Below, in pieces: positions 309 to 31,125 of a stretch of DNA of 32,000 nucleotides; position 1 is the first letter of the stretch, and every line of letters starts with the position of its first letter. The notes beneath the pieces are model-generated. The model was not told where the DNA came from. It saw nothing but the letters and a program-made list of their open reading frames with translations, and did not search any database. The DNA comes from Scytonematopsis contorta HA4267-MV1 (lineage in GTDB: Bacteria > Cyanobacteriota > Cyanobacteriia > Cyanobacteriales > Nostocaceae). The stretch covers positions 78,078 through 110,077 of the forward strand of contig JAHHIC010000067.1 in NCBI GenBank assembly GCA_019359035.1. Reading direction: 5' to 3'. Position numbers and translations under genes: made by a program.

Positions 309-2159
309 CTATAGTTTTCGTAAATCCTTTAAAGTAGGCGAACTTACATAAGATTCTGCTTGCATGTTGTATAACTTTGCATATGTACCTTGATTATTTA
401 TAAGCGCCTCATGTGTACCGTATTCTATAATTCGTCCATCTTGTAAAACAGCAATCGTATCAGCCATTCGCACAGTGCTAAAGCGATGTGAAATTAAAAC
501 ACCAGTACGTTCTAGCATGAGTTGAGCAAAATGACTATAAAGTTCATATTCAGCCTGAGCATCCAACGCTGCAGTTGGTTCATCTAAAATAAGTAAATCC
601 GCAGAACGGGAAAACATGCGAGCAGTTGCCACCCTTTGCCATTGACCCCCTGACAAATCAATACCCTGCTCTTCCTCAGCAAACATCCGGCTTAACTCGG
701 TCTCATAACCTTGGGGTAAACGCATAATATCATCATGAATGCTTGCTTGTTGTGCCGCTTGCTGTATGCAAGTAATATCATCAATTTTAGCTAAATTCCC
801 TAAACCTATATTCTCGCGCACTGTCAAATCATATCGCATAAAGTCCTGGAAAATAGTACCAATTCTTTGACGATATTCACTCGGTTGAAATTCGCGAATA
901 TCAATTCCATCCCACAAAATCTGTCCTTCAGATGGGTCATATAACCGAGTTAGTAACTTAACTAAGGTGGTTTTCCCAGCACCATTAAGTCCCACCAAAG
1001 CCAAACAACTACCAGCAGGAATCTTTAAATTGACATCGCGTAATATCCAGGGTTGCTGTTCGCTATAACGAAAAGAAACATGACGCAATTCTAACCCAGA
1101 TGAGAGTTTTGGCACCAACTGTGTAACCGATTGAACAGGTAATGCAGGTGGTAATGCTAATAAGTCTTGGTAATAGGAATGGAAAAGTATACTCTCATTA
1201 ATACCAGCAACTCCAGAAATAAATTGACTTAAAGCATCTTGAACCGAACTAACCGCACTTACATATAAGGTAATATCACCTAACGTAAGCTTTCTACTAA
1301 ATGCAGCAAGCACTACCATAATAAAGGCTATACTCGCTACAACACTAGAAAAAATACTTAAGCCCAACTCCCAACGTAACTCCCGTTGTTGTTGTTTTCG
1401 CTCTGCTTGATGAACCTGTTTATATAATTTAAGCAGTTTATGGAGAAAATATTGTCCCAGTCCGAAAAGGCGTACTTCCTTTGCAGCTTGTACACCAGCA
1501 AGTAAAAAGCTGTAATAAAACTTACGACGTTCCACGGGGCTAAGTTCAAAAGCAAGTCCAAACCGTTGCTGTCCTAATTTCAACTGCACAAGTAGTTGAG
1601 GGAAAGCCGCAAACAAAACGAGGTTAGCCAAAAAGAGATTGAACGAGAACAAGACACCAACAAAACTCAATAAAGTCACTAGACTTTGAATTAACTCTGT
1701 GAGAACATGCAGTGTCTGCTTAGAACTTTGCTCAGCACCTTCTTGAGCAAGACGAATCGTATCATAAACTTTAGGATTTTCAAAATGTGCGATTCCCTCA
1801 AAACGATTTATTTTTTGGTAAACAGTTGACTGAATTAGCACCGTCAGTCGTCGTCCGAGTTCGGCATTTAGGTAATTGCTCAGGTTGGGTAGCATTGCCG
1901 TAGCAACCATTAACATTGCCTGTACAACAAGCAACCAAATTAATTGCTCTTTCGACATTCTCCCACCAACCAGTAATTTTGCTAATCCATCAAATAACAC
2001 TTTAGTTACCCAAGCATTTGCTAGAGGGATTAGTCCTTGAAAAATTGTAATAATAAAAGTCCCTATACAAGCGGTCGGATATGCTTGCCATACCAGCTTA
2101 AGCATGTGGAATATAGATAGGAGAAATCGCGGTCTATGTTTAAGCTCGTCTAACATCAC
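309..2159 (-). CDS. ABC exporter, fused permease + ATPase (MsbA/MdlB-like half transporter) without a C39 peptidase domain
   Basis: 616-aa ORF. The N-terminal about 300 aa are hydrophobic (6-TM type). Motifs: Walker A GLNGAGKTT, signature LSGGQWQR, Walker B LLILDEPT, H-loop ISHR. Its start overlaps the upstream S26 gene by 20 nt. Confidence 0.9.
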   Translation of the reverse strand: MMLDELKHRPRFLLSIFHMLKLVWQAYPTACIGTFIITIFQGLIPLANAWVTKVLFDGLAKLLVGGRMSKEQLIWLLVVQAMLMVATAMLPNLSNYLNAELGRRLTVLIQSTVYQKINRFEGIAHFENPKVYDTIRLAQEGAEQSSKQTLHVLTELIQSLVTLLSFVGVLFSFNLFLANLVLFAAFPQLLVQLKLGQQRFGLAFELSPVERRKFYYSFLLAGVQAAKEVRLFGLGQYFLHKLLKLYKQVHQAERKQQQRELRWELGLSIFSSVVASIAFIMVVLAAFSRKLTLGDITLYVSAVSSVQDALSQFISGVAGINESILFHSYYQDLLALPPALPVQSVTQLVPKLSSGLELRHVSFRYSEQQPWILRDVNLKIPAGSCLALVGLNGAGKTTLVKLLTRLYDPSEGQILWDGIDIREFQPSEYRQRIGTIFQDFMRYDLTVRENIGLGNLAKIDDITCIQQAAQQASIHDDIMRLPQGYETELSRMFAEEEQGIDLSGGQWQRVATARMFSRSADLLILDEPTAALDAQAEYELYSHFAQLMLERTGVLISHRFSTVRMADTIAVLQDGRIIEYGTHEALINNQGTYAKLYNMQAESYVSSPTLKDLRKL

Positions 2160-2736
2160 TAGTTCCCCTCAGTTGCTGTAGGCTATCCAAATCAGAGTGA
2201 GGTAATAATTTCAATACAGCTATACCTGTTATAGCAGACAGAGGTATTGGTCCCACTGCTAAAGAATCCATACTAATTAGTCCATCTCCACGCAAAAAGC
2301 AATGGTTTTCTGGCACTTTCCAAACTAAATTTCCTTCTTCGTCGCAGTGCGATCGCAATTTTGTTTGCATAAACTCATGCAAGCTGGATATGGGAATACA
2401 CACCGTATCCCCAGGTAAACCAACGATGCGTTTAATAAATTTGGGACAGCTTGACTCAAATGGTATGTTTTCTCGGTCTAACTCGCTTATAGTATCAATA
2501 TCTAAAAATTCGTCTCCAGAAGACGGTACTTCTAACTCATTGATATTACCAATTACAATTTGCCCTTTACGTAACCAAAGATGTGGTAAGAGATTAAAGC
2601 TGAGTAAACGGTCAGCTTCCACAAGCGTTGGGAACATACTGTCACCATGTACTGTAGTGATAGTGAAATTCAATCTCACAAAAGCAATTATCACCAAACA
2701 TACAATAACTAAAATAGTCACTAGTTGTATCGACAT
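2140..2736 (-). CDS. S26-family signal peptidase I-like protease with a single N-terminal TM anchor
   Basis: 198-aa ORF with TM segment IQLVTILVIVCLVIIAFV. Box B GDSMFPTL carries the Ser nucleophile, box D KRIVGLPGD the general-base Lys, and box E is GDGLISMDS. AGGAAAC lies upstream of the ATG. Confidence 0.85.
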   Translation of the reverse strand: MSIQLVTILVIVCLVIIAFVRLNFTITTVHGDSMFPTLVEADRLLSFNLLPHLWLRKGQIVIGNINELEVPSSGDEFLDIDTISELDRENIPFESSCPKFIKRIVGLPGDTVCIPISSLHEFMQTKLRSHCDEEGNLVWKVPENHCFLRGDGLISMDSLAVGPIPLSAITGIAVLKLLPHSDLDSLQQLRGTSDVRRA

Positions 2737-2825: not shown

Positions 2826-3017
2826 CTAGCAGGATACATAGAATGATGATGTTCTACAACCAAGCCAACCGCAACATCTTTCCTTACAGAATTTTCGACG
2901 ACGTATGCATGAAAAGCAGGTTCTCCAACAAAATGCAGCAGCATTCTCGGATGGTAAAAAGTAGCCCAGTAGTTTGTCAGCTACATTCGTGAAAAAATTG
3001 TTCGTTAGGTTATTCAT
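2826..3017 (-). CDS. 63-aa cysteine-rich cationic precursor peptide (putative 28-aa leader + 35-aa core with 8 Cys)
   Basis: A strong SD precedes the start (AGGAGAAAATC-ATG). The sequence is MNNLTNNFFTNVADKLLGYFLPSENAAA / FCWRTCFSCIRRRKFCKERCCGWLGCRTSSFYVSC. All 8 Cys lie in the last 35 aa. The gene sits inside an operon of redox, protease and export genes. Confidence 0.7.
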   Translation of the reverse strand: MNNLTNNFFTNVADKLLGYFLPSENAAAFCWRTCFSCIRRRKFCKERCCGWLGCRTSSFYVSC

Positions 3018-3130
3018 GATTTTCTCCTGTTTGACTTTGTTTTATGATTCTTGTTTTGGTACATTACATTCTGGTCATTTCTTCAAAACATTCATTAAGC
3101 ATCACCTCCTTTACTGAATTCAGCTTCATA

Positions 3131-3703
3131 TTAAACTATTGCCAATACTTGCATCAGTTGCTCCTCCCATCCAGGTTTAAACACACCAGCGGCTGCTACA
3201 TGACTATCATGGTTAATTATGCAGTAAGAGGGAGTAGCAAGAGCTTTGTAGTCACTAGCGAATGAATTACTTTCGTTGGGAGCAATCAGAACAGGTAGTG
3301 CCACATTATGCTTTTTCACAAATGTTTCCGTTTCCGCTTTATCCCCATCGGTATTCACTAGCAACATTTCTACACCAGCTTGCTTAGCTTTAGCAGCAAG
3401 AGCATTAAGCTTTGGTATTTTCTCCAAACATGGACTACAGTGAGGTGAAACAAAGATAAACGAAACTACTTTATGAGCATAGTCAGCAAGCGTCACAGTT
3501 TCACCAGTTAATTTTTGTGCTTGAAAATCAGGTGCTGAAATACCTTTTTCTAACCCCACATCCATGTCAGCAAAAGCAGACAAGTTTGTTGACATATCAT
3601 TGAATCTACGAATAAGAGCAATAGTTAACAACAGATTCAATAACACAACAATCCATAATAAAACTGAATTAGCAACCCAAATTCGTAACATAAATTCGTA
3701 CAC
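3131..3703 (-). CDS. Membrane-anchored TlpA/ResA-family thioredoxin-like thiol-disulfide oxidoreductase (MauD-like)
   Basis: N-terminal TM VANSVLLWIVVLLNLLLTIALI. The thioredoxin fold carries the CxxC motif in VSPHCSPC, preceded by APDFQAQKLTGETVTL, which is typical of the TlpA/AhpC-TSA family. The real start is probably the ATG at 3691 (MLRIWV...) behind AAGAGGTG, rather than the GTG at 3703. Confidence 0.85.
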   Translation of the reverse strand: MYEFMLRIWVANSVLLWIVVLLNLLLTIALIRRFNDMSTNLSAFADMDVGLEKGISAPDFQAQKLTGETVTLADYAHKVVSFIFVSPHCSPCLEKIPKLNALAAKAKQAGVEMLLVNTDGDKAETETFVKKHNVALPVLIAPNESNSFASDYKALATPSYCIINHDSHVAAAGVFKPGWEEQLMQVLAIV

Positions 3704-3706
3704 CTC

Positions 3707-3754
3707 TTGGTAATTTGATTGATTATTTAGTTGGTAATTTGATTGATTATTTAG
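3707..3754. repeat. Perfect 24-bp tandem duplication spanning the MauE-like stop codon
   Basis: TTGGTAATTTGATTGATTATTTAG occurs at 3707-3730 and again at 3731-3754, followed by a partial third copy (TTGG). Confidence 0.9.
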
Positions 3755-4269
3755 TTGGGTTGAAATAAACGGTAAATTTCACCTAATTGCGCCCAAATGA
3801 TAAAAAATGCTAGAGATACAAATCCTGTAATTCCGAAAGTTAAAGGCGTAATTGGATATGTTAATTCTGGCTTTGTAGCTAAGCAAGCACCACCACAAGA
3901 ACATAATAAAAAACCAAAGTTACGTAATAAATCTGCTTGTGAAACAGTATGTTGACTTGCTCCAAAACAATTGCAATTGACTTGAATATTACGAAACAAA
4001 ACCGAAGCTAGAGCAACTGAGAAAATAACTAACAAAACCGAAGCTAATGAAAAAGCAATTACCTGCCATCTAAACAAAAAGAGTACAACAAGTAATTCAC
4101 TGATTAAGACAATTGTGGCTACTAACGGTGTGAATAACTTGGGTAAGAGCTGAAATTCGCGTACCGAATTTGCGTATTGTGGAAAACTTTTTATTTTAGA
4201 AAGAGAAGATATCAAAAATAAAAAGCCCACTACAAGTTTACAAAAGACTAACAGACATGTGTACTGCAT
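3751..4269 (-). CDS. MauE/DoxX-family redox-associated integral membrane protein
   Basis: 172-aa polytopic hydrophobic ORF with Cys clusters VNCNCFG and LLCSCGGAC. As I recall it, the CxCFG motif is characteristic of the MauE family. It is the first gene of the minus-strand operon. Confidence 0.7.
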   Translation of the reverse strand: MQYTCLLVFCKLVVGFLFLISSLSKIKSFPQYANSVREFQLLPKLFTPLVATIVLISELLVVLFLFRWQVIAFSLASVLLVIFSVALASVLFRNIQVNCNCFGASQHTVSQADLLRNFGFLLCSCGGACLATKPELTYPITPLTFGITGFVSLAFFIIWAQLGEIYRLFQPN

Positions 4270-4490: not shown

Positions 4491-7400
4491 TTAATTTATT
4501 CTCCTACAAGATACAGGAGTCAACAAAGGGCTATAAGAACTAGTGTCAGAATTTGCGATTAAAACAACTTCCCCTTTATTGTCCAACACCCAACCAGTGG
4601 CTTCTATGATAGGTTCTACGGTCGGAACAGTTATTTTACTGATATCAGATGAACTATTGCGGTTTACAGTGCTTGGATAAAGAGTAATTAAATCTACCTC
4701 TACAGCATCAGTATTAAGAGCTTCACCTGGATTAGGAGGCAAACCACCGCGTCCGGTAATAATAAATTCGCTCTTTGCAGTAGTTCCACCAGTAGTACAG
4801 CCCTGCGCCACCTTAGTATCAACTGGTACAGTTGGCAACTCAATTAAGCCACTATTGGGGTCAACTTCAGGTGCATTGAGTTCTGTAGTACCACTTAATT
4901 CAGGACTAGCCCCAGTAACGGTGATGTCACTTGTTTTATCAGATTCCACATTTCGGAATTTGATGCCAAACAGACCTTCCGTGTTGATTCTTATTTTTCC
5001 TCCCCGAAAGTCGGTAGAATCAGCCCTAATATCGCTATTTTCAATTGCCGTTAATAGGTCTGTATTAATATTGATGTTTCCACCGATAACATTTTCACCT
5101 CTTGCGTTGGTAACAATATTACTATTACGGCTCATTATCAAATCTTGTGAATTAATATTAATTGTCGCCTGCAGCCTATTAGACTCAACTTTAGCACTGC
5201 CTGTGCTAGCGTTAAGTAAACCATTGTTGTTTAAACGGATAGAACGAGCATTTAATGCCATATTGCCAGCGGTTCCTGTTCCGGAACTCTGCACCGTCAC
5301 TGTAGCTCCATCTCGCACAAGTAAGGTATCAGTTTTAATCATCAAATCTCCTGCATCCCCTGTTGAGTTTGACTCTGTGGAAGCAAACAAGCCACTGGCA
5401 GACTGATTATTGGAACTTCTACCAATCAGTTGTACATCCTGGGCATCAATAGTTAAATTTCCCCCCTTGCCCGTAGCAAGTGTACCGTTACCCACCTGTG
5501 CCCCATTTTTGACTAACAAGGTATTAGTTTTAATCGTTAAATCTCCCGCATCCCCTGTTGAGTTTGGCTCTGCAGAAGAAAACAAGCCACTGGGAAACTG
5601 ATTATCAACGCTTTTACCAATAAGTTGCACGTCAATAGCATCAACGATTAAATTTCCCCCCTTACCCGCACCAGCTGTACCGTTACCCACCTGTGCTCCA
5701 TCTTTGATTAATAAGGTATTAGTTTTAATCGTTAAATCTCCTGCATTACCTATTGAGTTTGGCTCTGCTGAAGTGAGCAAGGCACTGGCAACCTGATTAT
5801 TGGAACTTCTACCAATCAGTTGTACATCTTGGGCATCAACCGTTAGAAAACCTCCCTTGCCCGTACCAAATGTACTAGCAATCACCTGTGCCCCATCTCT
5901 GACTAACAAAGTATTAGTTTTAATCGTCAAATCTCCGGCATCACCTGTTAAGTTTAATCCGGAAGCAGCAAACAAGCCAGTAGCGAGAACCTGACCATCG
6001 ACGGTTTTACCAGTCAGTTCAATGTTTTGGGCATTAACGCTTAAATTTCCCCCCTTGCCCGCATCACTAGTACTAACGCTCACCTGTGCCCCATCCTTAA
6101 CTAGCAAAGTATTAGTTTTAATCGTCAAATCTCCTGCATTCCCTGTTGAGTTTGACTGTGCGGAAGCAAGCGAGCCACTAATAAGTTGCATGTTTTGGGC
6201 ATCAACGGTTAAATTTCCCCCCTTGCCCGCACCACTAGTACTAGCACTTACCTGTGCCCCATCTTGAACTAACAAGGTATTAGTTCTAATCGTCAAATCT
6301 CCCGCGTCCCCTGTTGAGCCTTGCACAGTTCGAGCAAACAAGCCACTGGGCAAACCATCAGTATTTCTACCAATCAGTTGCACGTTTTGGGCATCAACGG
6401 TTAAATTACCCCCTTTACCCGTAGCAAAGGTAGCAGCAATTACAGCCCCATCATCAACAAGCAAAGTGTTTGCACTGATATTGACATCGCCCCCCTGTCC
6501 ATTTGCTTCTGTTACGTTAAAAATGACACTCCCATTGTTCAGAGTAATTCCTCCCGTTGCATTAACCTGAATATTTCCTGCCTTATTATTATTAGAAGCC
6601 AGTCCAGTCTCTATGCCTGCAAAAAGAAAACTTCTTTCTGTCATCTCTAAATTCCGGGCATTAACAGCGATACTACCACCATTACTAGCTGTAACTTTTA
6701 CGGACGCACCATTACTAAGGGAAATATTACTTCTTTCGGCGCTATCAGGAAAACTCAAGCTCAGATTATTTCCATCATTATTTAAGCCAACTATTCCCGC
6801 ACTTGTTAACCCACCTAACTCAATTCGTCCACCAAAAGCATACAAACCTCCAGCATTCATATTGATATCACCCCCAACCAACAGCAAACTCTTGCCATCT
6901 AGTACGCGCAAACCCCTTGCTATGGAATCAGAAGATTGATTCCAACCAGAGTCTGTAACTGAGTTATTTTCGATAGATGCTGCACGAACTTGGTTAAATA
7001 GCAAAGCAGAAGGATTAATTGTCAACAGTGGAGGAGTATTCGGATTTGTTGCACTGAAAAAATTGCCCTTACCAAACTCAATGGCATTAGCTGTACTCGC
7101 AACAAAAGAACCACCAATATTTAAAGAAGCATTACCACCAAAAACAATACCCGACGGATTAATTAGAAACAAGTTAGCTGTTCCGTTGGCTTTAATTATT
7201 CCATTAATGTTAGAGACAGACCCACCCGTGACTCGACTAAGAATGTTCTGAATATCTGTAGCATTATTAAATATTGCAGCACCACCCCTTGGGACAGAAA
7301 ATTCCCCAAAACTATGGAACAGGTTGCTTCCTGCTTGGGTTCCCCCAGTGATATTAAAGATGTTTCCCTCTCTCCGCACATTGGAGTTATTAGGTAAAGT

Positions 7401-7511
7401 ACCATCCGGTGTAATTTGAGCGTTCGCACAATTATTACTCCACAGGTTTGCACTACATATTGCAATACCTATAAACAAGCCCCAACGATTACTTATCTGG
7501 AACATTTGCAT
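4491..7511 (-). CDS. Filamentous haemagglutinin N-terminal (TPS) domain exoprotein, TpsA-like, with a beta-helical repeat body
   Basis: Signal peptide ...NCANA-QITPDG. TPS-domain motifs are NITGGTQAGSNLFHSFGEFSV and LFLINPSGIVFGG. The Gly/Asn/Thr-rich body contains repeated GDAGDLTIKTNTLLVxDGAQV...GKGGNLTVDAQ units. Confidence 0.9.
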   Translation of the reverse strand: MQMFQISNRWGLFIGIAICSANLWSNNCANAQITPDGTLPNNSNVRREGNIFNITGGTQAGSNLFHSFGEFSVPRGGAAIFNNATDIQNILSRVTGGSVSNINGIIKANGTANLFLINPSGIVFGGNASLNIGGSFVASTANAIEFGKGNFFSATNPNTPPLLTINPSALLFNQVRAASIENNSVTDSGWNQSSDSIARGLRVLDGKSLLLVGGDINMNAGGLYAFGGRIELGGLTSAGIVGLNNDGNNLSLSFPDSAERSNISLSNGASVKVTASNGGSIAVNARNLEMTERSFLFAGIETGLASNNNKAGNIQVNATGGITLNNGSVIFNVTEANGQGGDVNISANTLLVDDGAVIAATFATGKGGNLTVDAQNVQLIGRNTDGLPSGLFARTVQGSTGDAGDLTIRTNTLLVQDGAQVSASTSGAGKGGNLTVDAQNMQLISGSLASAQSNSTGNAGDLTIKTNTLLVKDGAQVSVSTSDAGKGGNLSVNAQNIELTGKTVDGQVLATGLFAASGLNLTGDAGDLTIKTNTLLVRDGAQVIASTFGTGKGGFLTVDAQDVQLIGRSSNNQVASALLTSAEPNSIGNAGDLTIKTNTLLIKDGAQVGNGTAGAGKGGNLIVDAIDVQLIGKSVDNQFPSGLFSSAEPNSTGDAGDLTIKTNTLLVKNGAQVGNGTLATGKGGNLTIDAQDVQLIGRSSNNQSASGLFASTESNSTGDAGDLMIKTDTLLVRDGATVTVQSSGTGTAGNMALNARSIRLNNNGLLNASTGSAKVESNRLQATININSQDLIMSRNSNIVTNARGENVIGGNININTDLLTAIENSDIRADSTDFRGGKIRINTEGLFGIKFRNVESDKTSDITVTGASPELSGTTELNAPEVDPNSGLIELPTVPVDTKVAQGCTTGGTTAKSEFIITGRGGLPPNPGEALNTDAVEVDLITLYPSTVNRNSSSDISKITVPTVEPIIEATGWVLDNKGEVVLIANSDTSSYSPLLTPVSCRRIN
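5230..6500. repeat. Intragenic tandem repeats of about 168-198 bp in the TpsA-like gene
   Basis: The marker G(T/A)(C/T)AAATCTCC recurs at 5341, 5536, 5731, 5926, 6124 and 6292, giving spacings of 195, 195, 195, 198 and 168 bp. Confidence 0.8.
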
Positions 7512-7581: not shown

Positions 7582-7830
7582 CTATTTTTCAGATAGGATT
7601 GCTATATTAGGGCTTGAAGTTTAGTTAATGCTTTTGCTAATCTTTGTTTATTACTTCTCGGTTCAAAACATTAGAGGTTCTGCTATTTTTTACAAAGCTT
7701 AACGATAAAATATTAATCCGAAAACGAGTACTTTTGATACACAAACTCAACATTCAACTACTTACGTATAAAAAACTAATTTTTAAATATAATAGTCTCA
7801 AAATTGACAATTCTAATAAAACCTATTTCT

Positions 7831-7878
7831 AGTCCTCTTTAGAGGACTTTAGCTTTTAGACAGGGAATTTATTCCCTG
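7831..7878. repeat. Twin short hairpins in the divergent TpsA/CHAT intergenic region
   Basis: AGTCCTCT-TT-AGAGGACT lies at 7831-7848 and CAGGGAAT-TT-ATTCCCTG at 7861-7878. Function unknown. Confidence 0.5.
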
Positions 7879-7977
7879 GCTATCGTGGGAAGGGGTGGTA
7901 GTATTTAAGTAAATATAGTTATGATTATGACATGAATTTTTAGTGGTGCAATATGTCAGTTAAGAAGATTAAATGCA

Positions 7978-10635
7978 TTGGGCGTTGAGGTTGCAATCGA
8001 AAGCGAGGACAAGCATATGCACAAAAAACGTTTAGTAACCTTAATGCTACTATTAGCTTTGTTTTTGGGAACAGCGATATTACCAAGTTTCGCCCATTTA
8101 CCTGAGCAAAAGACTATTGTGCAGAATATAAAAGTACCTCAGCAACTAGACCAACAAGGCAGGAAACTCTACGCAACCGGATATTTTTCCGAAGCTATTA
8201 CTGTTTGGCAACAGGCTGCTGCTAATTTCCAAGCCGTCGGTGATAAATTACAGCAAGCGATGGTGTTAAGTAATTTATCATTGGCTTATCAGCAATTGAG
8301 TCAATGGAAAGAAGCCAAGAGTGCGATTTCTCAAAGTCTAAATTTATTAGAAAATTTGGATAATCCATTGGATAATTCAAAGCAGCGTTCGCAAATTTTC
8401 GCTCAAATTTTGGATGTACAGGGACGTTTGCAACTCTCATTATCACAACCGGAAGCAGCGCTAAATACTTGGAAACAAGCGACTAATATATATAGTCAAC
8501 TAAATGACAAAGCTTCCGTTAATCGCAGTCGCATTAACCAAGCGCAAGCTTTGCAAAATTTAGGGCTTTACCGACAAGCTGAAAAAATATTAGCTGAGAC
8601 AGGACAAGCCCTTCAAAAAGAACCAGACTCTTCTTTGAAAATTACCGGACTGCGTAGCTTGGGTAATGTTCTTCGTGTCATTGGTGATTTAGAAACATCC
8701 CAGCAAGTTTTGCAGCAAAGTTTACAAGTAGCACAAGCATTGTCTGATTCCGAAGCTATGGGTGATGTGCTTTTGAGTTTAGGCAACACAGCCCACGCAC
8801 AAGGAAACATATCAGCCGCTATCAAATATTACCAGCAAGCAGTTAGTATTTCACCAACCGTACGTCTTCCAGCACAGCTAAAGCAACTGAGTTTATTGCT
8901 GGAAAATAAGCAAATAAGTGCTGCTCAAGCGTTAGTACCAAATATTCAATCTCAAATTAATAATTTACCCACCAACCGTATAGGGGTTTATGCTCGGATT
9001 AACTTAGCAGAAAGTTTGCTAAAGTTATCAGCAATTAATAGTAGTCAACAAAATAATAATCAACAAAATAACAATCAACAACCAATAACAGATATTGGAA
9101 AGCTACTAGCAAAAGCTGTTCAACAAGCAAAAACCCTTGGTGATAAACGCGCTGAATCTCAAGCCTTGGGGTGGTTGGGGAAAGTTTACGAACAAAATCA
9201 GCAGTTTTCTAATGCAAAAGACTTGACTCAACAAGCTTTACTTATAGCTCAGAGTATAAGAGCGTTAGATATTACCTACCAGTGGCAATGGCAGCTAGGA
9301 CGCTTACTAAAGCAACAAGGAAATAACCAAGAAGCAATTGCAAGTTACACTGAAGCCGTTAATTCTCTCCAATCTCTCCGTAGTGATTTAGTAGCCATTA
9401 GTTCAGAAGTTCAGTTTAATTTTAGGGAAGAAGTAGAGCCAGCATATCGTCAATTGGTCGATTTACTTTTAACAACATCCGTAAACACTGGCAATACAAA
9501 TAATAGTAATAGTCAAAAATATATCCTCAAAGCTCGTGAGGTAATTGAGTTACTTCAGTTAGCGGAACTGGATAACTTTTTTCGTGAAGCTTGTTTACAA
9601 CCACAACGTCCAATTGACCAAGTTATTGATACTGAAGACCCAACAGCAGCAGCCATTTATCCAATTATTTTGCCAGACCGACTGGAAGTTATCCTAAAGT
9701 TACCTGGCAAAGCTCTGCGCCATTACACCACTATGGTTAGCCAGAGCAAAGTCGAAAGTACACTGAACGAACTGCGTCAAAATCTTACCACACCTCATAC
9801 TTTGCGAGTTGCTCAGTCTTTATCTAAACAAGTGTATGATTGGCTGATTCGACCTACAGAAGACGAATTGACTAAAAATCAGGTGAAAACCTTAGTATTT
9901 GTACTCGATGGTGTTTTACGCAATATCCCAATGGCAGCTTTGTATAATGGTAAACAGTACTTAGTGGAAAACTACAGCATTGCTTTAACCCCAGGTCTAA
10001 AGTTAATTAACCCCCAAAGATTGCAAAAGCAACAATTAAAGGCGATAACTGCTGGAGTCAGTGAACCACGTGGAGGATTTTCGGCACTACCTAACGTCAA
10101 GCTGGAATTAGCAGAAATTAAGTCTCAATTGCCTAGCGAAACACTTCTTAATCAAGAGTTTACCGCTCAAGCTTTGCAAAACAGCGTCGGTTCACAGCCT
10201 TTTCCCGTAGTACATTTGGCAACTCATGGTCAGTTTAGCTCCGAGGCAAAGAAAACATTTATTGTCGCTTGGGATAAACGCATTTATGTCGATGAACTGG
10301 ATAACTTACTCAGAACTAGAGACATCAGTCAACCTGAAGCAATTGAACTACTTGTTTTGAGTGCTTGTCAAACAGCTGCTGGAGACAACAGAGCGGCTTT
10401 AGGTATTGCTGGTGTCGCTATACGAGCTGGGGCACGCAGTACTTTGGCTTCTTTGTGGAATTTAGATGATGAGTCTACTGCTTTGTTAATGAGCCAATTC
10501 TACCGAGAATTAGCTACCAAGAAAATACCTAAAGCTGAAGCGCTCCGTCGTGCTCAATTAACTTTGTTAAAGAATCCTCAATATAGACGTCCGTTGTTTT
10601 GGGCACCTTATGTTTTATTGGGTAATTGGCTCTGA
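7978..10635 (+). CDS. Secreted TPR-repeat + C-terminal CHAT (caspase-fold) protease domain protein
   Basis: The likely true start is the ATG at 8017 (GAGGA upstream), giving MHKKRLVTLMLLLALFLGTAILPSFA as a signal peptide. A long TPR-like region contains an N/Q low-complexity tract. The CHAT dyad context is VVHLATHGQF (His) and LVLSACQTAAG (Cys). Confidence 0.9.
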   Translation: MGVEVAIESEDKHMHKKRLVTLMLLLALFLGTAILPSFAHLPEQKTIVQNIKVPQQLDQQGRKLYATGYFSEAITVWQQAAANFQAVGDKLQQAMVLSNLSLAYQQLSQWKEAKSAISQSLNLLENLDNPLDNSKQRSQIFAQILDVQGRLQLSLSQPEAALNTWKQATNIYSQLNDKASVNRSRINQAQALQNLGLYRQAEKILAETGQALQKEPDSSLKITGLRSLGNVLRVIGDLETSQQVLQQSLQVAQALSDSEAMGDVLLSLGNTAHAQGNISAAIKYYQQAVSISPTVRLPAQLKQLSLLLENKQISAAQALVPNIQSQINNLPTNRIGVYARINLAESLLKLSAINSSQQNNNQQNNNQQPITDIGKLLAKAVQQAKTLGDKRAESQALGWLGKVYEQNQQFSNAKDLTQQALLIAQSIRALDITYQWQWQLGRLLKQQGNNQEAIASYTEAVNSLQSLRSDLVAISSEVQFNFREEVEPAYRQLVDLLLTTSVNTGNTNNSNSQKYILKAREVIELLQLAELDNFFREACLQPQRPIDQVIDTEDPTAAAIYPIILPDRLEVILKLPGKALRHYTTMVSQSKVESTLNELRQNLTTPHTLRVAQSLSKQVYDWLIRPTEDELTKNQVKTLVFVLDGVLRNIPMAALYNGKQYLVENYSIALTPGLKLINPQRLQKQQLKAITAGVSEPRGGFSALPNVKLELAEIKSQLPSETLLNQEFTAQALQNSVGSQPFPVVHLATHGQFSSEAKKTFIVAWDKRIYVDELDNLLRTRDISQPEAIELLVLSACQTAAGDNRAALGIAGVAIRAGARSTLASLWNLDDESTALLMSQFYRELATKKIPKAEALRRAQLTLLKNPQYRRPLFWAPYVLLGNWL

Positions 10636-10817: not shown

Positions 10818-11435
10818 TTATAAAGTCGCATTAAAAATTTGTTGTGCGGTCAGGTTTAGCTCTGGGAATACAGTAGAAATAATGCGCTCGGACTCCCTAA
10901 ATTGAGAAACCTGATATTCGTCATCAACTAAGTTATAAATTGATAAAGTTGGTTGTTTTGGGCTACCGATATATTTAACACCACCCAACCCAAGATAATC
11001 TACAATCCAATACTCAAGTATTTTTAGTTCCTCATACTCACCCATCTTTTTATAATAGTCATCGCGCCAATTTGTACTAACTACTTCAACCACTAAGGGG
11101 ATAGAAGCACCACTCTGAACAGTAGAATATTTTGCCCAAAGTTCTTCTGTTTTTAAAGCCGGTTTATTAAGTACTAATACATCTGGAGAGTAAGCGGAAT
11201 CACTAGTGGCAGATTGGACTAATGCAGTTTTGGGAATTGAGTAAGGTAATTTTAAACGTTTGATTTCCGAGGAAATTTCAATATTTAAAAATCCTGCAAC
11301 ATCTTCATGGTCTCCAGTTGGCTGTGACATCTCAACTATTGCCCCATTATGTAGTTCGTAACGTTTATCTGAATTTTCTGGAATCCACTCCAAAAATTCT
11401 CGAACTGTTATTGGTTTGAATAATGCTTGAGTCAT
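10818..11435 (-). CDS. Uma2-family (DUF820) PD-(D/E)xK-like endonuclease
   Basis: 205 aa. Motifs: FLEWIPENSDKRYELHNGAIVEMSQPTGDHE, SPDVLVL, PLVVEVVSTNWRDDYYKKMGEYEELKILEYWIVD. This is the typical Uma2 pattern, which is very abundant in cyanobacteria. Confidence 0.85.
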   Translation of the reverse strand: MTQALFKPITVREFLEWIPENSDKRYELHNGAIVEMSQPTGDHEDVAGFLNIEISSEIKRLKLPYSIPKTALVQSATSDSAYSPDVLVLNKPALKTEELWAKYSTVQSGASIPLVVEVVSTNWRDDYYKKMGEYEELKILEYWIVDYLGLGGVKYIGSPKQPTLSIYNLVDDEYQVSQFRESERIISTVFPELNLTAQQIFNATL

Positions 11436-17292: not shown

Positions 17293-20241
17293 CTGCAGTC
17301 GTCCGACCGGGAGCGGATAAAGATAAATCCCCCTAACTTCATACCTTATAAAGGAACTGACCATTTCGTTGGACGGTTAGAAGAACTGGCCGCAATTCAC
17401 GAAAAATTTAACCAGCAAAAAAACGCGGTCGCAATTTCTGCGGTCGCTGGGATGGGAGGTGTGGGTAAAACAGAGCTAGCGTTAAAATATGCACGCTCCC
17501 ATGAAGATAATTATCCTGGGGGGATTTGCTGGTTTAGCGTCCGCTCTAGTAATATCGCAACTGAAATTCTCAACTTTGCTAAAAATGACCTGAAATTAGA
17601 AATACCACAGAAAGACGACTATCAAGAACAACCCCTGACACTTAAAGAACAAGTACAATGGTGTTGGCGAAATTGGCAACCACCTGAAGGGTTCGTTTTG
17701 GTAGTATTTGATGATGTAACTGATGTAGAAAACTTTGCTGATTATTTACCAACAAATCAGCGCTTTCGGGTCTTGATAACAACCAGATTGCGAAATATTG
17801 ATACTGAAATTGAAGAAATATCTTTAGATGTACTATCACCTGAAGAAGCTTTAAAATTATTAAAAAGCTTGATTGGCGAAAACAAGGTAAATAAAGAGCT
17901 AGAAAAGGCTAAAGAGTTATGTGAATGGTTGGGATATTTACCATTAGGTATAGAATTAGTAGGAAGACATGTATCTAAAAAGCCTCCTCACTTTACTTTA
18001 GCTAAAATGCTGGAGCAGTTGAAACAACAGCGACTGTATCAAGAAGCAATAAATCCCAAGCAAAAGACTTTAAGTACAGCACAGCTTGGTGTACAAGCAG
18101 CGTTTGAATTAAGCTGGTTGGAGCTAGACGAACAAACACAAAAAGTTGCTGCATTGTTAAGTTTATTTGCAGCAGAAATTTTTGCATGGGAGTGGGTAGA
18201 GTCTATAACTAATTCCCTTTATTGGGATGAAGATGTTGTTAACACAGCGATTGAGCAACTTTACCAAAGACACTTAGTTAATGGCTTAGAAGAGTCGGAT
18301 ACATATTACTATAAAATCCATACCTTAATTCGCGAATTTTTACAAGAAAAGCTAGCAGCGTTACCAGAAGCTGAGGAGTTTAAAAGAGTGTTAGCGCATT
18401 ATTTTATAGAAATTGCTCAGTCAATTCCTTATTCAGCAACCCTAGAGATAATCGCGGGAGTAAAAAGTGCAATTCCCCACTTAGCTGTTGTTGCAGAAAA
18501 TTTGATAGATTCGGTTAGCGATGAAAATTTAATTTGGGCTTTTGTTGGTAATGCTAGATTTTACTCCTCACAGGGTTTGTATGTGCTAGCAGAACCTTGG
18601 TATAAGCAATGTGTATTGGTCGTAAAATCTCACTTAGGAGAAAATCATCCCTACTATGCTGGTAGCTTGAACAATTTAGCTGGACTCTACTGCTCTCAAG
18701 GAAAATATGAAGAAGCTGAACCGCTTTATATCGAAGCATTGGAGTTAACAAAACGCAACCCTGGAGAAAATCACCCCAACTATGCTACCAGCTTGAACAA
18801 TTTAGCTGGACTATACGAGTCTCGAGGAAAATATGAAGAAGCAGAACCGCTTTGTATCCAAGCATTGTCTTTAATAAAACGCATACTTGGAGAAAATCAT
18901 CCGGACTATGCTGGTAGCTTAAACAATTTAGCTGAACTCTATCGTTCCCAGGGAAAATATGAAGAAGCAGAACCACTTTATATCGAAGCATTGGAGTTAA
19001 CAAAACGCAACTCTGGAGAAAATCATCCGGACTATGCTAACAGTTTGAACAATTTAGCCGTACTCTACTACTCTCAAGGAAAATATGAAGAAACAGAACC
19101 ACTTCTTATCGAAGCATTGTCTTTAACAAAACGCATACTGGGAGAAAATCATCCGGACTATGCTAACAGCTTGAACAATTTAGCTGAACTCTATCGTTCC
19201 CAGGGAAAATATGAAGAAGCTGAACCGCTTTATATCGAAGCATTGTCTTTAACAAAACGCATAACAGGAGAAAATCATCCGGACTATGCTAGGAGCTTGA
19301 ACAATTTAGCTGGACTCTATCGTTCCCAGGGAAAATATGAAGAAGCTGAACCGCTTTATATCGAAGCATTGTCTTTAACAAAACGCATAACAGGAGAAAA
19401 TCATCCGGACTATGCTACCAGCTTGAACAATTTAGCTGTACTCTACAAGTTTCAAGGAAAATATGAAGAAGCTGAACCGCTTTATATCGAAGCATTGGAG
19501 TTAACAAAACGCAACCCTGGAGAAAATCACCCCAACTATGCTACCAGCTTGAACAATTTAGCTGTACTCTACAAGTCTCAAGGAAAATATGAAGAAGCTG
19601 AACCGCTTTATATCGAAGCATTGTCTTTAAGAAAACGCATAACAGGAGAAAATCATCCCGACTATGCTCAAAGCTTGAACAATTTAGCCCTACTCTACGA
19701 CTCTCAAGGAAAATATGAAGAAACAGAACCATTTCTTATCGAAGCATTGTCTTTAAGAAAACGTATAACAGGAGAAAATCATCCCGACTATGCTCAAAGT
19801 TTGAACAATTTAGCCCTACTCTACGACTCTCAAGGAAAATATGAAGAAGCTGAACCGCTTTATATCGAAGCATTGTCTTTAACAAAACGTATTTTAGGAG
19901 AAAATCATCCCGACTATGCTAGCAGCTTAAACAATTTAGCTGCACTCTACGACTCTCAAGGAAAATATGAAGAAGCTGAACCGCTTTACACGCAAGCATT
20001 GGAGTTAAGAAAACGCATTTTAGGAGAAAATCATCCCGACTATGCTCAAAGCTTAAACAATTTAGGTGGACTCTACGACTCCCAAGGAAAATATGAAGAA
20101 GCAGAACCACTTTACCAGCAAGCTCTAATTGTTTGCGAACAGAAGTTAGGTGTTGGTCATCCAAATACAATTACAGTTAGAGCTAATTATGCTGAGTGTT
20201 TAAAGTTGATGTCCTATAGAGGATTTGCAAACAATCTTTAG
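17293..20241 (+). pseudogene. NB-ARC STAND NTPase + 12 TPR (42-aa, kinesin-light-chain-like) repeats (segment 3, same frame as segment 2)
   Basis: The frame is open directly after the TGA: LQSSDRERIKINPPNFIPYKGTDHFVGRLEELAAIHEKFNQQKNAVAISAVAGMGGVGKTELA. The first ATG (17452) lies inside the Walker A loop, and there is no ATG, GTG or TTG between 17293 and 17451. Other motifs: Walker B LVVFDDV, RVLITTR, and GLPL-like GYLPLGIEL. Confidence 0.85.
18637..20148. repeat. 12 x 126-bp near-identical tandem repeats encoding the TPR sensor array
   Basis: GGAGAAAATCATCC(G/C)GACTATGCT recurs with an exact 126-bp period, and 12 x 126 = 1512 bp. A degenerate 13th unit starts at 20149 (GVGHP). Confidence 0.9.
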
Positions 20242-22923: not shown

Positions 22924-25900
22924 ATGGTAGATTGGTTAGTCGTTTGGGGAGCTACCAAAGCATTTGGGGTTTTAGTGACTCCATTCCTCCAGGATTTAGC
23001 GAAAGATGGAGCAAAAGACCTCGCTGTAGGTTTTTTTAAAGACACTCTCACCCATCAATTCCGCGAAAAAGACCCGCGTCAGGTTGCGACTGGTCAAGCA
23101 ATTAAGATACTTTTACAGCGCATACAGCAAGAGTTAAAAATTCGTCATAAAATTCCTGACCCGGAAATTCAGCATTGCGTCTCGGATGTGAAAAAATTTC
23201 TTGCTCAAAAGCAGGTACAGGAATTTCTCGGACAACCATTTGATTTAAGCTGCGATTCTTTAGATAGCAACACCCTCAAAAAATACTGGGACGATTTAAA
23301 GTTAATATCCCTACCACCTAATTTTAACTGGTCGGGTGTCACGGAAGATTATTTCTTTCAAGTCAAAACAATTCTCGATGACCCCGAATCAAAGGATTTA
23401 AGGGATATCCTTCAGTGTCAAAAGCTCGCAGATATTGATAAAGCTACCCAAGATATTAGAAAAAACACTCAAGAAATCGCCGGAATTATTCCAGAGTTTG
23501 ATTTAATCACATATCAAGAAGCTATTTTAGAAACTTACGAAAAATTAAAGTTAGATAGCTTAGACACGAGCGGATATGCTTACAACGAACTAAAACTGTG
23601 GCGCATTTTTACAGAGCAAGATGCACGCGCTGTACATCAATATTTACCCCGCGTTTACGAACTACCTAAAGAGCATTTCCAAAAACTCAAATCCAGCGAC
23701 CAAATTGAAGCACGCGATTTTAACGAAGAAGAAATCGCCAATCTCAAACGCGGTTATCTGGAACAACCAATTACCCCTGTCCTAGAAATTGTTCGTCAAA
23801 AGTCTACTTATAAATATACCGTTATTTTAGGCGACCCTGGCTCTGGTAAATCTACTTTATTACAACATTTAGCGGTAACTTGGGCAAAATTATCACCCCA
23901 AGAAGCAGCAAAACAAGATATTCCTTTATTAATTGAACTGCGTACTTATGTTCGCAAGCGCGAAAATCAAGAATGTAAAAATTTTCTTGATTTCTTCCAT
24001 AACTGTAGCGGTGTTATTCACCATCTTAACCAGCATCTATTACACGAAGAATTAAAAGCTGGTCGCGGTTTGGTTATGTTTGACGGGTTAGATGAAATTT
24101 TCGACCCAGCAATCCGCGAAGATATTATTACCGACATTCACCGCTTTACCAATACTTATCCCAACGTCCAAGTAATTGTTACTTCTCGCGTTATTGGTTA
24201 TAAAGCAGATAAGTTAAAGAACGCGAGATTTTCTCACTTTATGTTACAAGATTTGTCAGCAGCACAAATTCAATATTTTATCCAGCGCTGGCATAATTTA
24301 ACATATGATAACCAAGAGGAACGACAAAGAAAAAGCGAGCGCTTATCAAGAGGTATTCATAATTCATTCGCAATTCAAGAACTAGCTGGAAATCCGCTAT
24401 TGTTAACAATGATGGCGATTTTAAACCGCAACCAAGAGTTACCCAGAGATAGAGCAGAGCTATACAATCAAGCATCGCGAGTGTTATTGCATCAATGGGA
24501 TGTCGAGCGCGTTTTAATTGAAGATAAACGTATTGACCCGAAAACAATTGACGATAAAGATAAGCAATCAATGCTGCGCGAAGTTGCTTATAAAATGCAA
24601 ACTAGCGCTAAAGGTTTAGCGGGTAATTTAATTGAAGAAGCAGATTTAAAGAAGATTTTAAGCGAATATCTCAGAAATAACAATATTTATCCCGCAGAAT
24701 CAAGAGAAGTTGCAGTATTGATGATAAACCAACTGCGCGCTCGTAATTTCATGTTATGTTTCGTTGGTGCGGAATATTATGCTTTTGTTCATCGCACTTT
24801 CTTAGAATATTTCTGCGCGACTAAATTTGTAATAACGTTCGAGAAAGAGCAAAGTCTTTCTAAAGAACAATTAAAAACAGAAATTTTCGGTCAACATTGG
24901 CAAGATGAAACCTGGCATGAAGTGTTACGCTTAATAGCGGGGATGATTGATGCTAAGTTTGTCGGTGAGATTATTGATTACCTCATGAAGCAAAAGGGGG
25001 AACGAGAGAATTTTAGCAATATTTTTCTTGCAGCTAAGTGTTTGCAAGAGGTAAGAAATAGGACTGTAATTGCTGAGGTGAGCGAAAAATTATTAAATGA
25101 GCTAAAAGGCTTGATTCGTTATGTTATCATTAGGGCTTCGAGCAGTACAATAAACGAAACAGTTAATCAAATTCGTAAAGATGCAATCTCTGCTATTGCT
25201 ATTACATTTATTGATGACCCTGATACCCTCCCTTGGGTAAAACAACTTGCTACAAAGGATAAAGATAGGTTTGTGCGAAGTACTGCTGTATGGGGATTAG
25301 CACATAATTATAAAGACGACCCCGATACCCTCCCAATCCTAAAACAACGCGCTACACAGGATGAAGATATGTTTGTGCGAATTACTGCTGTCAGCGAATT
25401 AGCAGGTAATTATAAAGACGACCCCGATACCCTCCCAATCCTAAAACAACGTGCTACACAGGATGAAGTCAGCTTTGTGCGAAGTACTGCTGTAAGGGAA
25501 TTAGCAGGTAATTATAAAGATCACCTCGATACCCTCCCCTGGCTAAAGCAACACGCTACACAGGATGAATCTAGCGATGTGCGAAGTACTGCTGTAAGGG
25601 AATTAACACGTAATTATAAGGATGACCCCGATACCCTCCCAATGCTAAAACAACGCGCTACACAGGATGAATCTAGGGACGTGCGAAGAACTGCTGTCAG
25701 CGAATTAGCACGTAATTATAAGGATGACCCCGATACCCTCCCAATGCTAAAACAACGTGCTACACAGGATGAATCTAGCTCTGTGCGAAGTACTGCTGTC
25801 AGCGAATTAGCAGATAATTATAAAGACGACCCCGATACCCTCCCCTGGCTAAAACAACTCGCTACACAGGATGAATCTAGCTCTGTGCGAAGTACTGCTG

Positions 25901-27921: not shown

Positions 27922-28647
27922 TTATTGGGTAATTGGCTCTGAAGCTAAATTCTCTAAGCCTATAGATTGCAACAGGCTAGTCCAATCAGCTTTTAAAGTA
28001 CTCCTTTGTTGAACTAGTTGTTGGGCTAGGATAGTTATTGCTTCGTGCCAAATGCCATTAGAGGCATAAATTGCTACTTTCTGTCGTGCTGTGGCTTTCT
28101 CTAACTGAGTTTTGATAGTGGGGCTGAGTGACTTTCGTTGCACATTACCTTCTACGTAGCCTAAAATTCCATTATTCTCCTTGCAATAAATATTGAAATA
28201 CCAACGATACTGTTTATCAACTACGAGGGGTGTGCTTGTGTCTGGTAATTTAAAATTAACTACTCCTGGGGTGTTTTTGAAAGGAATTTTATACTTAGTT
28301 TGATTCTCGCTTGAATCTTCTAGCACAAACTCTGCATAGGTAGCGGTTGCGGAATAGGGGATATAGAACCAGAAAGTTGGATGCTCGGAGGTAGTTAATC
28401 CCCAGACTACTGGTGGTTTGGTAGAAGTAGAAATTGGGACTATTGCTGTGAGGGGTTTTTGGGCAGTTTTAACCTCTTGGTTGTTATCTCCACAGGGACG
28501 ACGGCTTCCTGCTTCCCCACGTCTACCTGGCTCTCCTATGTCTGGTGGTGGTGGGGGTGCGGCAAATATTATCGGAGATTGCGCTTTTACTGCTGTGCAG
28601 TTAAGAAGTACAGTGCTAATTAGTAAAAAAAGTTTTATTGTTTTCAT
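27922..28647 (-). CDS. Secreted DUF928-like protein
   Basis: Signal peptide MKTIKLFLLISTVLLNCTAVKAQ, followed by PPPPPDIGEPGRRGEAGSRRPCG and LTAIVP...GLTTSEHPTFWFYIPY. As I recall it, this is the DUF928 pattern found next to CHAT/CHASE2 genes in cyanobacteria. Confidence 0.65.
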   Translation of the reverse strand: MKTIKLFLLISTVLLNCTAVKAQSPIIFAAPPPPPDIGEPGRRGEAGSRRPCGDNNQEVKTAQKPLTAIVPISTSTKPPVVWGLTTSEHPTFWFYIPYSATATYAEFVLEDSSENQTKYKIPFKNTPGVVNFKLPDTSTPLVVDKQYRWYFNIYCKENNGILGYVEGNVQRKSLSPTIKTQLEKATARQKVAIYASNGIWHEAITILAQQLVQQRSTLKADWTSLLQSIGLENLASEPITQ

Positions 28648-28670
28648 GGTTATAAACTAAAGGAATATAA

Positions 28671-28760
28671 CGAACCGCCAAGGAGCCAAGGAAGCCAAGT
28701 TTAAGCAGTTTAAAAGAGAGATTTCTCTTCCCTTGGCGCTCTTGGCTTCTTGGCGGTTCG
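28671..28760. repeat. Long imperfect inverted repeat of GCCAAG(G/A)-type heptamers bridging the CHASE2 gene stop codon
   Basis: The arms 28671-28699 and 28732-28760 are reverse complements at 25 of 29 positions, with a 32-nt loop. The right arm encodes the C-terminal tail ...AKKPRAPREE of the upstream ORF. Confidence 0.8.
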
Positions 28761-31094: not shown

Positions 31095-31125
31095 CAGTAT
31101 CTAAATTTTAACTTTTAGATGTAAA

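Follow-up and report, generated by a model that had tools for sequence, protein, structure and literature searches.

Double-glycine bacteriocins (for example, the pediocin-like class II peptides) and sublancin 168 (SunT, BdbA/BdbB) are made with a dedicated non-Sec leader, pass through an ATP-binding cassette (ABC) exporter encoded in the same operon, and lose the leader with export. Here we describe a locus of related design in the cyanobacterium Scytonematopsis contorta HA4267-MV1, located in a 32,000-nucleotide (nt) stretch of contig JAHHIC010000067.1 (GCA_019359035.1, positions 78,078 to 110,077; referred to below as the window), where a short open reading frame (ORF) is probably the gene for a precursor from which a self-contained five-gene cassette makes a secreted, cationic mini-protein stapled by disulfides. 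The genes lie on one strand in the order MauE-like membrane protein, redoxin, precursor, S26 peptidase and ABC exporter (Table 1). As in the double-glycine systems and other peptidase-containing ABC transporters (PCATs), a dedicated exporter is encoded with the precursor, but the leader of the cassette ends in A-x-A (AAA) rather than GG, its exporter lacks the C39 Cys-protease, and a separate S26 Ser/Lys protease is encoded instead. Membership in the double-glycine/PCAT class was rejected on two counts, the AAA end of the leader and an ABC protein that begins at its transmembrane (TM) domain.

The two redox genes also have described counterparts. The cassette pairs a MauE-like with a TlpA-like protein, in place of the DsbB-like BdbB and the BdbA of sublancin, and would place four disulfides in 35 residues. 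For the disulfide-containing product sublancin, cluster-encoded thiol-disulfide oxidoreductases are reported as necessary (PMC9266682). Class I lasso peptide clusters (sviceucin with SviE/SviF, and siamycin-type) similarly carry a DoxX/MauE-type membrane protein and a CxxC thioredoxin-fold protein beside an ABC exporter, for a ribosomal peptide that contains disulfides (PMC9266682), but the cassette has neither a lasso cyclase gene nor one for a leader protease (B/C genes), and its core is not lasso-like. A lasso peptide was thus rejected, the B/C genes being absent from the window cassette, where the region past the ABC gene is clipped by the window edge, and from 11 of the 12 other loci described below; a weak 344-amino-acid (aa) Asn_synthase-like gene lies downstream of the ABC gene only in L003/L004. 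MauE and MauD are implicated in maturing the disulfide-rich small subunit of methylamine dehydrogenase (PMC7794033), so that there, too, the pair is devoted to one small exported polypeptide with very many disulfides. The cassette differs in having no other mau genes, in a substrate that is a 35-aa peptide and not a quinone-cofactor enzyme subunit, and in a redoxin that scores 35.7 bits against the MauD cut-off of 188.6.

Judged by sequence, the nearest described relatives are three Streptomyces precursors among the 'MauE' candidate families of RiPPs (peptides made by ribosomes and modified after translation) proposed by decRiPPter, which are computational candidates with at least eight Cys (Kloosterman et al., 2020; PMC7794033). 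Their clusters contain a mauE homologue, and one also a mauD, their precursors have at least eight Cys as in the window cassette, and the three listed precursors share its leader design (...LLGLFVPKVEAAA/... and ...ARVLPQETAAA/AC..., with leader and core separated by a slash). Against the cyanobacterial family profile these three score a modest 12.0, 20.5 and 15.2 bits, which is 5-8 standard deviations above their shuffles (shuffle maxima 3.4-7.0). The decRiPPter clusters are, however, actinobacterial, with shorter leaders and different cores, and no product and no protease or exporter role is described for them; in PMC7794033 and the supplements searched, we found no signal peptidase or S26 protein linked to the 'MauE' clusters.

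Dedicated or unusual S26 proteases for a specific substrate are known from the SipW-TasA system of Bacillus and from the Ni-SOD maturation protease SodX, and the cassette protease matches the SodX NCBIfam family weakly (E 8.5e-4). The A-x-A end of cinnamycin-type leaders has been attributed to type I signal peptidase (PMC12837462), and the same specificity is thus used there to remove an N-terminal extension. Unlike in all of these, the S26 gene of the cassette is translationally coupled to an ABC gene, its presumed substrate has a non-Sec leader, and the enzyme lacks the positive N-tail of ordinary signal peptidases. The TMcin system (PMC13252029), with an S2P-type protease, DsbA and a TM-helix peptide, was set aside. 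Our literature search, which left most subscription-journal papers outside its reach, yielded no study of this cyanobacterial family, of S26 proteases that act as leader peptidases of bacteriocins or RiPPs, or of an S26 leader peptidase coupled to an ABC exporter; the decRiPPter candidate list alone was relevant. On the reading given here, the cassette would make a leader-guided, ABC-exported, disulfide-containing ribosomal peptide with the use of an S26 protease and a MauE/redoxin pair.

The precursor was noticed in an earlier inspection of the letters of the window (the original prediction), which described a short ORF with a consensus Shine-Dalgarno (SD) sequence encoding a cationic, Cys-rich core behind a Cys-free leader with an Ala-Ala-Ala end. 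It left the strand unstated; the ORF is confirmed on the minus strand, with AGGAGA 5 nt ahead of its ATG. The core has the predicted spacing C-x3-C-x2-C-x6-C-x3-CC-x4-C-x8-C, six Arg and two Lys against one Glu (net +7) and seven aromatic residues, and the Cys density of the ORF is the highest among the 226 stop-to-stop segments of the window. With four disulfides the predicted mature product has a computed monoisotopic mass of 4268.86 Da. The leader (isoelectric point 4.4) shares with Sec signals the small residues at -3 and -1, as the -3/-1 rule of signal peptidases asks, and the claim that it lacks the basic n-region and hydrophobic h-region of such signals also holds: Lys15 is its sole basic residue, and its hydropathy peaks at an 11-residue Kyte-Doolittle mean of 0.86, compared with 1.5-3.0 (19-residue windows) in the TM segments of the neighboring proteins. 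Hydropathy and charge together rule out a Sec-type signal peptide.

The gene context, unseen by the original prediction, gives the strongest support to its proposal of an A-x-A site with a dedicated leader: immediately downstream of the precursor lies the S26 gene, followed by the ABC exporter gene, the two sharing a 20-nt overlap in the window. The S26 protein exceeds the family cut-offs (PF10502, 59.8 bits against 22.9; TIGR02227, 55 bits against 47), 16 diverse cassette homologues all retain its Ser33 (SMxPT) and Lys102 (KRxxGLPGD), and it is presumed to be the dedicated leader peptidase. The exporter is the best conserved protein of the cassette (84-96% identical in Nostocales and 47-70% elsewhere) and has no N-terminal C39 peptidase domain, as models of bacteriocin, NHLP and HlyB exporters match it only from model positions 144-180, past the peptidase domain, and all below their curated cut-offs. 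Upstream of the precursor, the redoxin has a CSPC motif of the invariant form C89-x-P-C92, an invariant cis-Pro (T157-P158) and one N-terminal TM segment (residues 13-31); among NCBIfam models its similarities are best to ResA, StoA and TlpA, the ResA/MauD matches being weak and all below cut-off, and the ATG at 3691 may be where it truly starts, by comparison with the L003 orthologue. The MauE-like protein, presumed to be the membrane redox partner, has at least four hydrophobic segments and a CxCFG motif (C99, C101) that is invariant in seven cassettes of different lineages.

The five-gene order recurs in 13 distinct loci, with intact catalytic motifs in all those examined; the loci comprise the window, Nostoc sp. 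B(2019), Halotia wernerae UHCC 0503, Cyanomargarita calcarea, Komarekiella atlantica, several metagenomic or assembly contigs and two Chloroflexota metagenome-assembled genomes, and the S26 and ABC genes overlap or abut wherever both are separate genes. Two gene fusions moreover physically link parts of the cassette, S26 with the ABC exporter in L012 and S26 with a redoxin-like domain in L095. As a control we used the loci of ordinary signal peptidases returned by a metagenome scan with the S26 alignment, a scan that had keyed on the universal KRxxGLPGD motif; around these genes no precursor-like ORF was found even at E <= 10 (80 loci, 0.5 Mb, 6,856 ORFs). The locus has a leader-plus-core precursor with putative cluster-encoded processing enzymes, as RiPPs in the strict sense do, but the tailoring chemistry beyond proteolysis and disulfides that strict RiPPs also have finds no support, as the 13 cassettes contain no further conserved enzyme gene. 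Beside the cassettes of L001, L005 and L012 lie genes for a MacB/FtsX-type pump and a membrane-fusion protein, and beside that of L095 lies a pump of this type with no membrane-fusion protein listed; none is visible in the window, which stops ~300 nt past the ABC gene. These pumps may carry the peptide across the outer membrane or shield the producer.

Homologues with a conserved Cys scaffold, proposed as a check on the original prediction, were found in numbers that grew with the sensitivity of the search: three by a single-sequence search of 5.8 billion protein clusters (where no protein identical to the precursor occurs), 21 by a word-indexed profile search, and 59 at E <= 1e-3 by an exhaustive hidden Markov model scan of 1.84 billion representatives. 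The ~75 relatives in total have the leader and the Cys scaffold in common, and none is named or has a Pfam domain; the precursor itself matches nothing in Pfam or NCBIfam at E <= 0.01. Their leaders follow the form MNNLTNKLFTKV..LAQ....I..VADKLL...LP.E.A.A and are roughly 28-41 aa long, the window peptide being a short version with an internal deletion of ~13 residues. Position -1 is Ala in 71 of 71 relatives, and position -3 is Ala in 55, Val in 10, Ser in five and Gly in one. Cores have a median length of 42 aa and a median net charge of +5, and their Cys number is even in 69 of 71 (six in 22 relatives, eight in 42, ten in three and twelve in two), with all eight Cys kept in the eight-Cys relatives. 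The leader is the conserved portion of the family, with a mean pairwise identity of 0.41 compared with 0.13 at non-Cys core positions, which, together with its non-Sec character, bears out the view of it as a dedicated leader.

Several loci carry tandem arrays of precursors (four in L003, six in L005 and five in L006), and between tandem paralogues the ratio of nonsynonymous to synonymous differences (pN/pS) is 0.95 in the core compared with 0.28 in the leader. The window-type core (..CKERCCGWLGC..) is the single precursor type found in all seven Nostocales loci, and is itself conserved among them (pN/pS 0.1-0.4). Most other members of the family terminate exactly at the last Cys, whereas one subfamily (P0010, P0014, P0016, P0018-P0020, P0024, P0029 and P0039) has an internal CQRI(S/A)RYVGQ and a CNPGV tail past it. 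In the cores of P0035, P0045, P0052, P0054 and P0063, Arg and aromatic residues are exceptionally abundant, as in AFCYGWVYYACWCWVWPRYRRYYRRLCWNWRWYYQYTCSTNRC, with 13-17 aromatics in ~42 residues and only six Cys. At L096 (5475-5615) the precursor ORF of a distant cassette ends three residues past A-x-A (...PQATAHACHG, then the stop) and is either a pseudogene or a sequencing frameshift.

The closest orthologue of the precursor is an uncalled ORF in L003, which is 92% identical and differs at 1, 3 and 14 sites in codon positions 1, 2 and 3, with a pN/pS of 0.21 in the leader and 0.11 in the core. An AAGGAGA(c/a)AA(c/a)AAT(C/T)-ATG context precedes nearly all precursors in related loci. Because substitutions are biased to third positions, pN/pS is low and the SD sequence is conserved, the ORF is, on these comparisons, a real gene under purifying selection. 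The expectation that such ORFs escape automated annotation was also borne out, as gene callers overlooked two of four precursors in L003 and two of six in L005.

Table 1. Features of the window, with positions counted from its first letter.
Feature	Position	Strand	Description
MauE-like integral membrane protein	3751-4269	-	172 aa; PF07291 MauE E 8.6e-23; first cassette gene
Membrane-anchored thioredoxin-fold redoxin (TlpA/ResA/MauD-like)	3131-3703	-	190 aa from GTG; Pfam AhpC-TSA/Redoxin E 1e-18
Shine-Dalgarno sequence	3023-3028	-	AGGAGA, read off the sequence
Precursor ORF	2826-3017	-	63 codons; MNNLTNNFFTNVADKLLGYFLPSENAAA then FCWRTCFSCIRRRKFCKERCCGWLGCRTSSFYVSC; stop codon 2826-2828
Leader, residues 1-28	2934-3017	-	MNNLTNNFFTNVADKLLGYFLPSENAAA; family-conserved, Cys-free, A-x-A end
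Core, residues 29-63	2829-2933	-	FCWRTCFSCIRRRKFCKERCCGWLGCRTSSFYVSC; 35 aa, 8 Cys, net +7
Stem-loop	2763-2794	-	14 pairs and one bulge, ~-20 kcal/mol; begins 32 nt past precursor stop
S26 (signal peptidase I-like) Ser/Lys protease	2140-2736	-	198 aa; PF10502 E 4e-16; SMFPT and KRIVGLPGD motifs
ABC exporter half-transporter	309-2159	-	616 aa; 6-TM domain and nucleotide-binding domain; Pfam ABC_membrane and ABC_tran
TPS-domain (filamentous haemagglutinin-like) protein	4491-7511	-	1006 aa; adjoins cassette; syntenic in L003
TPR-CHAT protein	7978-10635	+	adjoins cassette; syntenic in L003
Uma2-family endonuclease-like gene	10818-11435	-	
NB-ARC-TPR STAND NTPase	17452-20241	+	929 aa
NACHT-HEAT STAND NTPase	22924-26979	+	1351 aa
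DUF928, CHASE2-CHAT and DUF1822 genes	27922-31911	-	further along the window

Structure prediction of the core, suggested as a check on the original prediction, returned a confident flat three-stranded antiparallel beta-meander (AlphaFold; predicted local distance difference test score 91.8; strands 2-10, 13-22 and 25-34) without a significant PDB counterpart, and a low-confidence helix at 9-20 of the leader. In Foldseek searches of PDB with the precursor and core-only models, even the best matches had E > 0.5, and the top 50 included no toxin, knottin or defensin, although such searches have little power for 35-aa peptides, and PDB sequence searches with the precursor and core profiles gave nothing significant. 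The name that the original prediction gave the core, defensin/knottin-like, is therefore not supported: the resemblance is one of composition, with no Pfam, NCBIfam, PDB sequence or fold match behind it. The eight Cys with a central CC pair, in place of a six-Cys framework, and the lack of a Pfam/NCBIfam match speak against a defensin; the modeled core is a net +7 three-stranded antiparallel sheet for which Foldseek retrieved no defensin structure. A knottin or inhibitor cystine knot, which would require the pairing I-IV, II-V and III-VI with one disulfide threaded through the ring of the others, finds no support by fold or by sequence, as no significant PDB match was found (Foldseek being weak at 35 aa). 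Conotoxins, alpha/beta-defensins and hepcidin combine a conserved pre-region with a variable core on a fixed Cys framework and are cationic, 30-45 aa long and beta-rich, with vicinal CC. The cassette peptides would differ from these in Cys spacing, in bacterial origin and in a predicted ABC-dependent export, and with no sequence or fold match the likeness is one of analogy only. Because Cys counts are even in 69 of 71 relatives and two redox genes lie upstream, full disulfide pairing of the Cys is supported as the probable state of the product. Cys2 and Cys4 are lost together in the six-Cys CQRI(S/A)RYVGQ subfamily, and because of this joint loss a C34-C44 pair is hinted at.

Collectively, these data suggest the following bacteriocin-like route. 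The amphipathic non-Sec leader would be recognized by the dedicated ABC exporter and direct the precursor there; the S26 Ser/Lys protease would cut after Ala28 (between AAA and F), taking the role that the C39 domain has in double-glycine bacteriocin exporters; the CxPC redoxin and the CxC MauE-like membrane protein would form or shuffle the four disulfides; and the 35-aa product would fold as a rigid three-stranded beta-sheet. Its site of action would be extracellular, with an antimicrobial or toxin-like role the most probable, and this is the weakest step. We favor antagonism because of the cationic, aromatic composition and the diversified paralogues, and keep a signaling role open because the window-type core is conserved and no immunity gene was found.

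Several points weigh against this route. The usual substrates of S26 enzymes are membrane-embedded signal peptides, cleaved at the outer face, and because the leader here is not hydrophobic, its recognition must differ from the classical mode. Redoxins of the TlpA/ResA type are usually reductants, so the pair could isomerize disulfides or hold thiols reduced. The core model was built on a shallow alignment of 19 sequences. Conservation of the core in Nostocales (pN/pS 0.1-0.4) would fit a fixed target or signaling as well as antagonism, and no immunity gene is evident in the cassette. In class I lasso clusters, finally, the analogous DoxX/thioredoxin genes are dispensable (PMC9266682).

The alternative that survives best keeps the cassette and its product and changes the membrane face: the S26 domain, and perhaps the redoxin, would be cytoplasmic and docked on the ABC protein, and cleavage of the leader would precede or accompany translocation, as it does in peptidase-containing ABC transporters, with export of the peptide to follow. 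We consider this possible, although on balance doubtful. It draws on the L012 fusion (7663-10353; GCA_022842065.1, JALHQH010000046.1), in which S26 and ABC exporter form one 896-aa ORF with S26 at the N-terminus; a hydrophilic linker of ~100 aa without a TM segment joins them, and because the exporter has its usual six TM segments, its N-terminus must be cytoplasmic. This fusion is, however, single, with none more among 54 S26 clusters other than the S26-redoxin-like P0130, a metagenome scan for its relatives found none, and it could reflect a lost stop codon or an assembly error. In L095 (2322-3302; P0130), S26 carries a C-terminal second redoxin-like domain that shares 31% identity with the cassette redoxin (E 2e-21) and is joined to S26 directly, without an intervening TM segment; this domain has lost its CxxC, and the same cassette also has an intact redoxin gene. 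The N-tail of cassette S26 proteins, taken at face value, also points to the cytoplasm, with a median of two residues and no Lys/Arg in 96%, compared with 22 residues and four Lys/Arg in ordinary signal peptidases I, of which only 2% are without Lys/Arg. Conserved positive charges of the redoxin (R32, R33) follow its TM segment, which likewise fits a cytoplasmic face, but classical signal peptidases, which face outward, likewise conserve an Arg past the TM segment (cKR median 1 in both sets), which leaves the argument from charge weak. Moreover, the formation of four disulfides in a reducing cytoplasm would be unusual. Should this topology hold, the cassette might represent a new peptide-export machine, in which an ABC exporter has recruited S26 to its cytoplasmic face to act as leader peptidase (a C39 counterpart), with the MauE/redoxin pair on the same face, and which, in Cyanobacteriota, Chloroflexota and Actinomycetota, yields libraries of four-disulfide mini-proteins that share a fixed Cys scaffold and are diversified like conotoxins; we offer this only tentatively.

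Rather unlikely is a mature peptide that serves as a signal, a pheromone or developmental cue sensed by the producer's own population, and not as a weapon. The window-type core, under purifying selection and the only precursor type in all seven Nostocales loci, would suit such a role, as would the missing immunity gene and the GerE/LuxR-type response regulator encoded immediately ahead of the cassette in L013 and L014. Tandem divergent paralogues with a core pN/pS of ~1 and strongly cationic, aromatic-rich cores (median net +5) are instead typical of antagonistic peptides, and no receptor kinase is conserved beside the cassette in the loci examined. The regulator gene of L013/L014, which encodes a GerE/LuxR-type output domain, directly precedes the MauE-like gene.

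Improbable, too, is the idea that the Cys stay reduced and that the exported peptide binds metal or buffers thiols in the periplasm, with the TlpA-like redoxin as reductant. Members of the TlpA/ResA family are typically reductants, and it is ResA, StoA and TlpA that the redoxin resembles best. Disulfide pairing, and not metal binding, predicts the even Cys counts of 69 of 71 relatives, however, and the His or Cys-x-Cys clustering typical of metallothioneins is missing; the confident beta-sheet model would place the Cys on neighboring strands, and neither a metal transporter nor a chaperone is among the genes conserved around the cassette.

An ordinary small Sec-secreted protein, processed by the housekeeping signal peptidase and flanked by unrelated neighbors, would account for an A-x-A end that fits the -3/-1 rule, but we regard it as very improbable, given a leader with neither a basic n-region nor a hydrophobic h-region, a cassette conserved in 13 loci across phyla and the absence of precursors near generic signal peptidase genes. 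A spurious ORF can be dismissed, for although the frame is short and is overlapped by an antisense 49-aa ORF (2843-2992) and a same-strand, out-of-frame 42-aa ORF (2816-2944), codon-position bias and pN/pS favor the precursor frame, the SD sequence is conserved, and ~75 homologues at a constant cassette position already refute the idea. The antisense ORF (plus strand) lies wholly inside the precursor gene and has a similar 47-aa counterpart in homologous loci; because substitutions track the codon positions of the sense frame, it appears to be a shadow of that frame.

Taken together, the cassette of filamentous cyanobacteria and its relatives in Chloroflexota and Streptomyces point to a new family of secreted ribosomal peptides rich in disulfides, which spans three phyla, lies outside Pfam and NCBIfam and is frequently overlooked by gene callers. 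Its variable cores on a rigid Cys scaffold form natural sets and are plausible leads for antimicrobial or toxin-like activities, and the locus suggests a rule for genome mining, namely the joint presence of an A-x-A leader, a MauE/redoxin pair and an S26 gene coupled to that of an ABC exporter without C39. MauE and MauD would thereby gain a concrete setting outside methylamine metabolism, and the cassette raises the question of whether an S26-family enzyme can be dedicated to removing the leader of a non-Sec substrate, perhaps at the cytoplasmic face.

Apart from the coding sequence, the 2763-2794 hairpin downstream of the precursor is a candidate attenuator or transcript-stabilizing element. 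Strong hairpins also occur 3' of precursors in L005, L006, L010, L011 and L013; the entire 101-nt spacer downstream of the precursor has a z-score of only -1.9. A promoter scan of the region returned fewer sigma-70-like sites than its shuffles, and we claim none; an Rfam scan of the whole window had no match. The junction of the MauE-like and redoxin genes is filled by a perfect 24-bp tandem repeat of 2.2 copies (3707-3758; TTGGTAATTTGATTGATTATTTAG).

The neighborhood of the cassette is partly shared among loci. Because the TPS-domain and TPR-CHAT genes that adjoin it are syntenic in L003, and because DUF928 and CHASE2 genes directly follow the ABC gene of the cassette in L005, modules of the TPS/CHAT/DUF928/CHASE2 kind may tend to co-locate with it. 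The two STAND NTPases and the Uma2-like gene of the window belong to the usual content of filamentous cyanobacterial genomes. From just past the stop codon of the ABC exporter, a 24-bp unit (CCGCCTCAAGTAGCAAGCAAGATG) is repeated nine times in tandem (79-299; 91% matches); several reading frames stay open through this repeat, which also harbors terminator-like hairpins.

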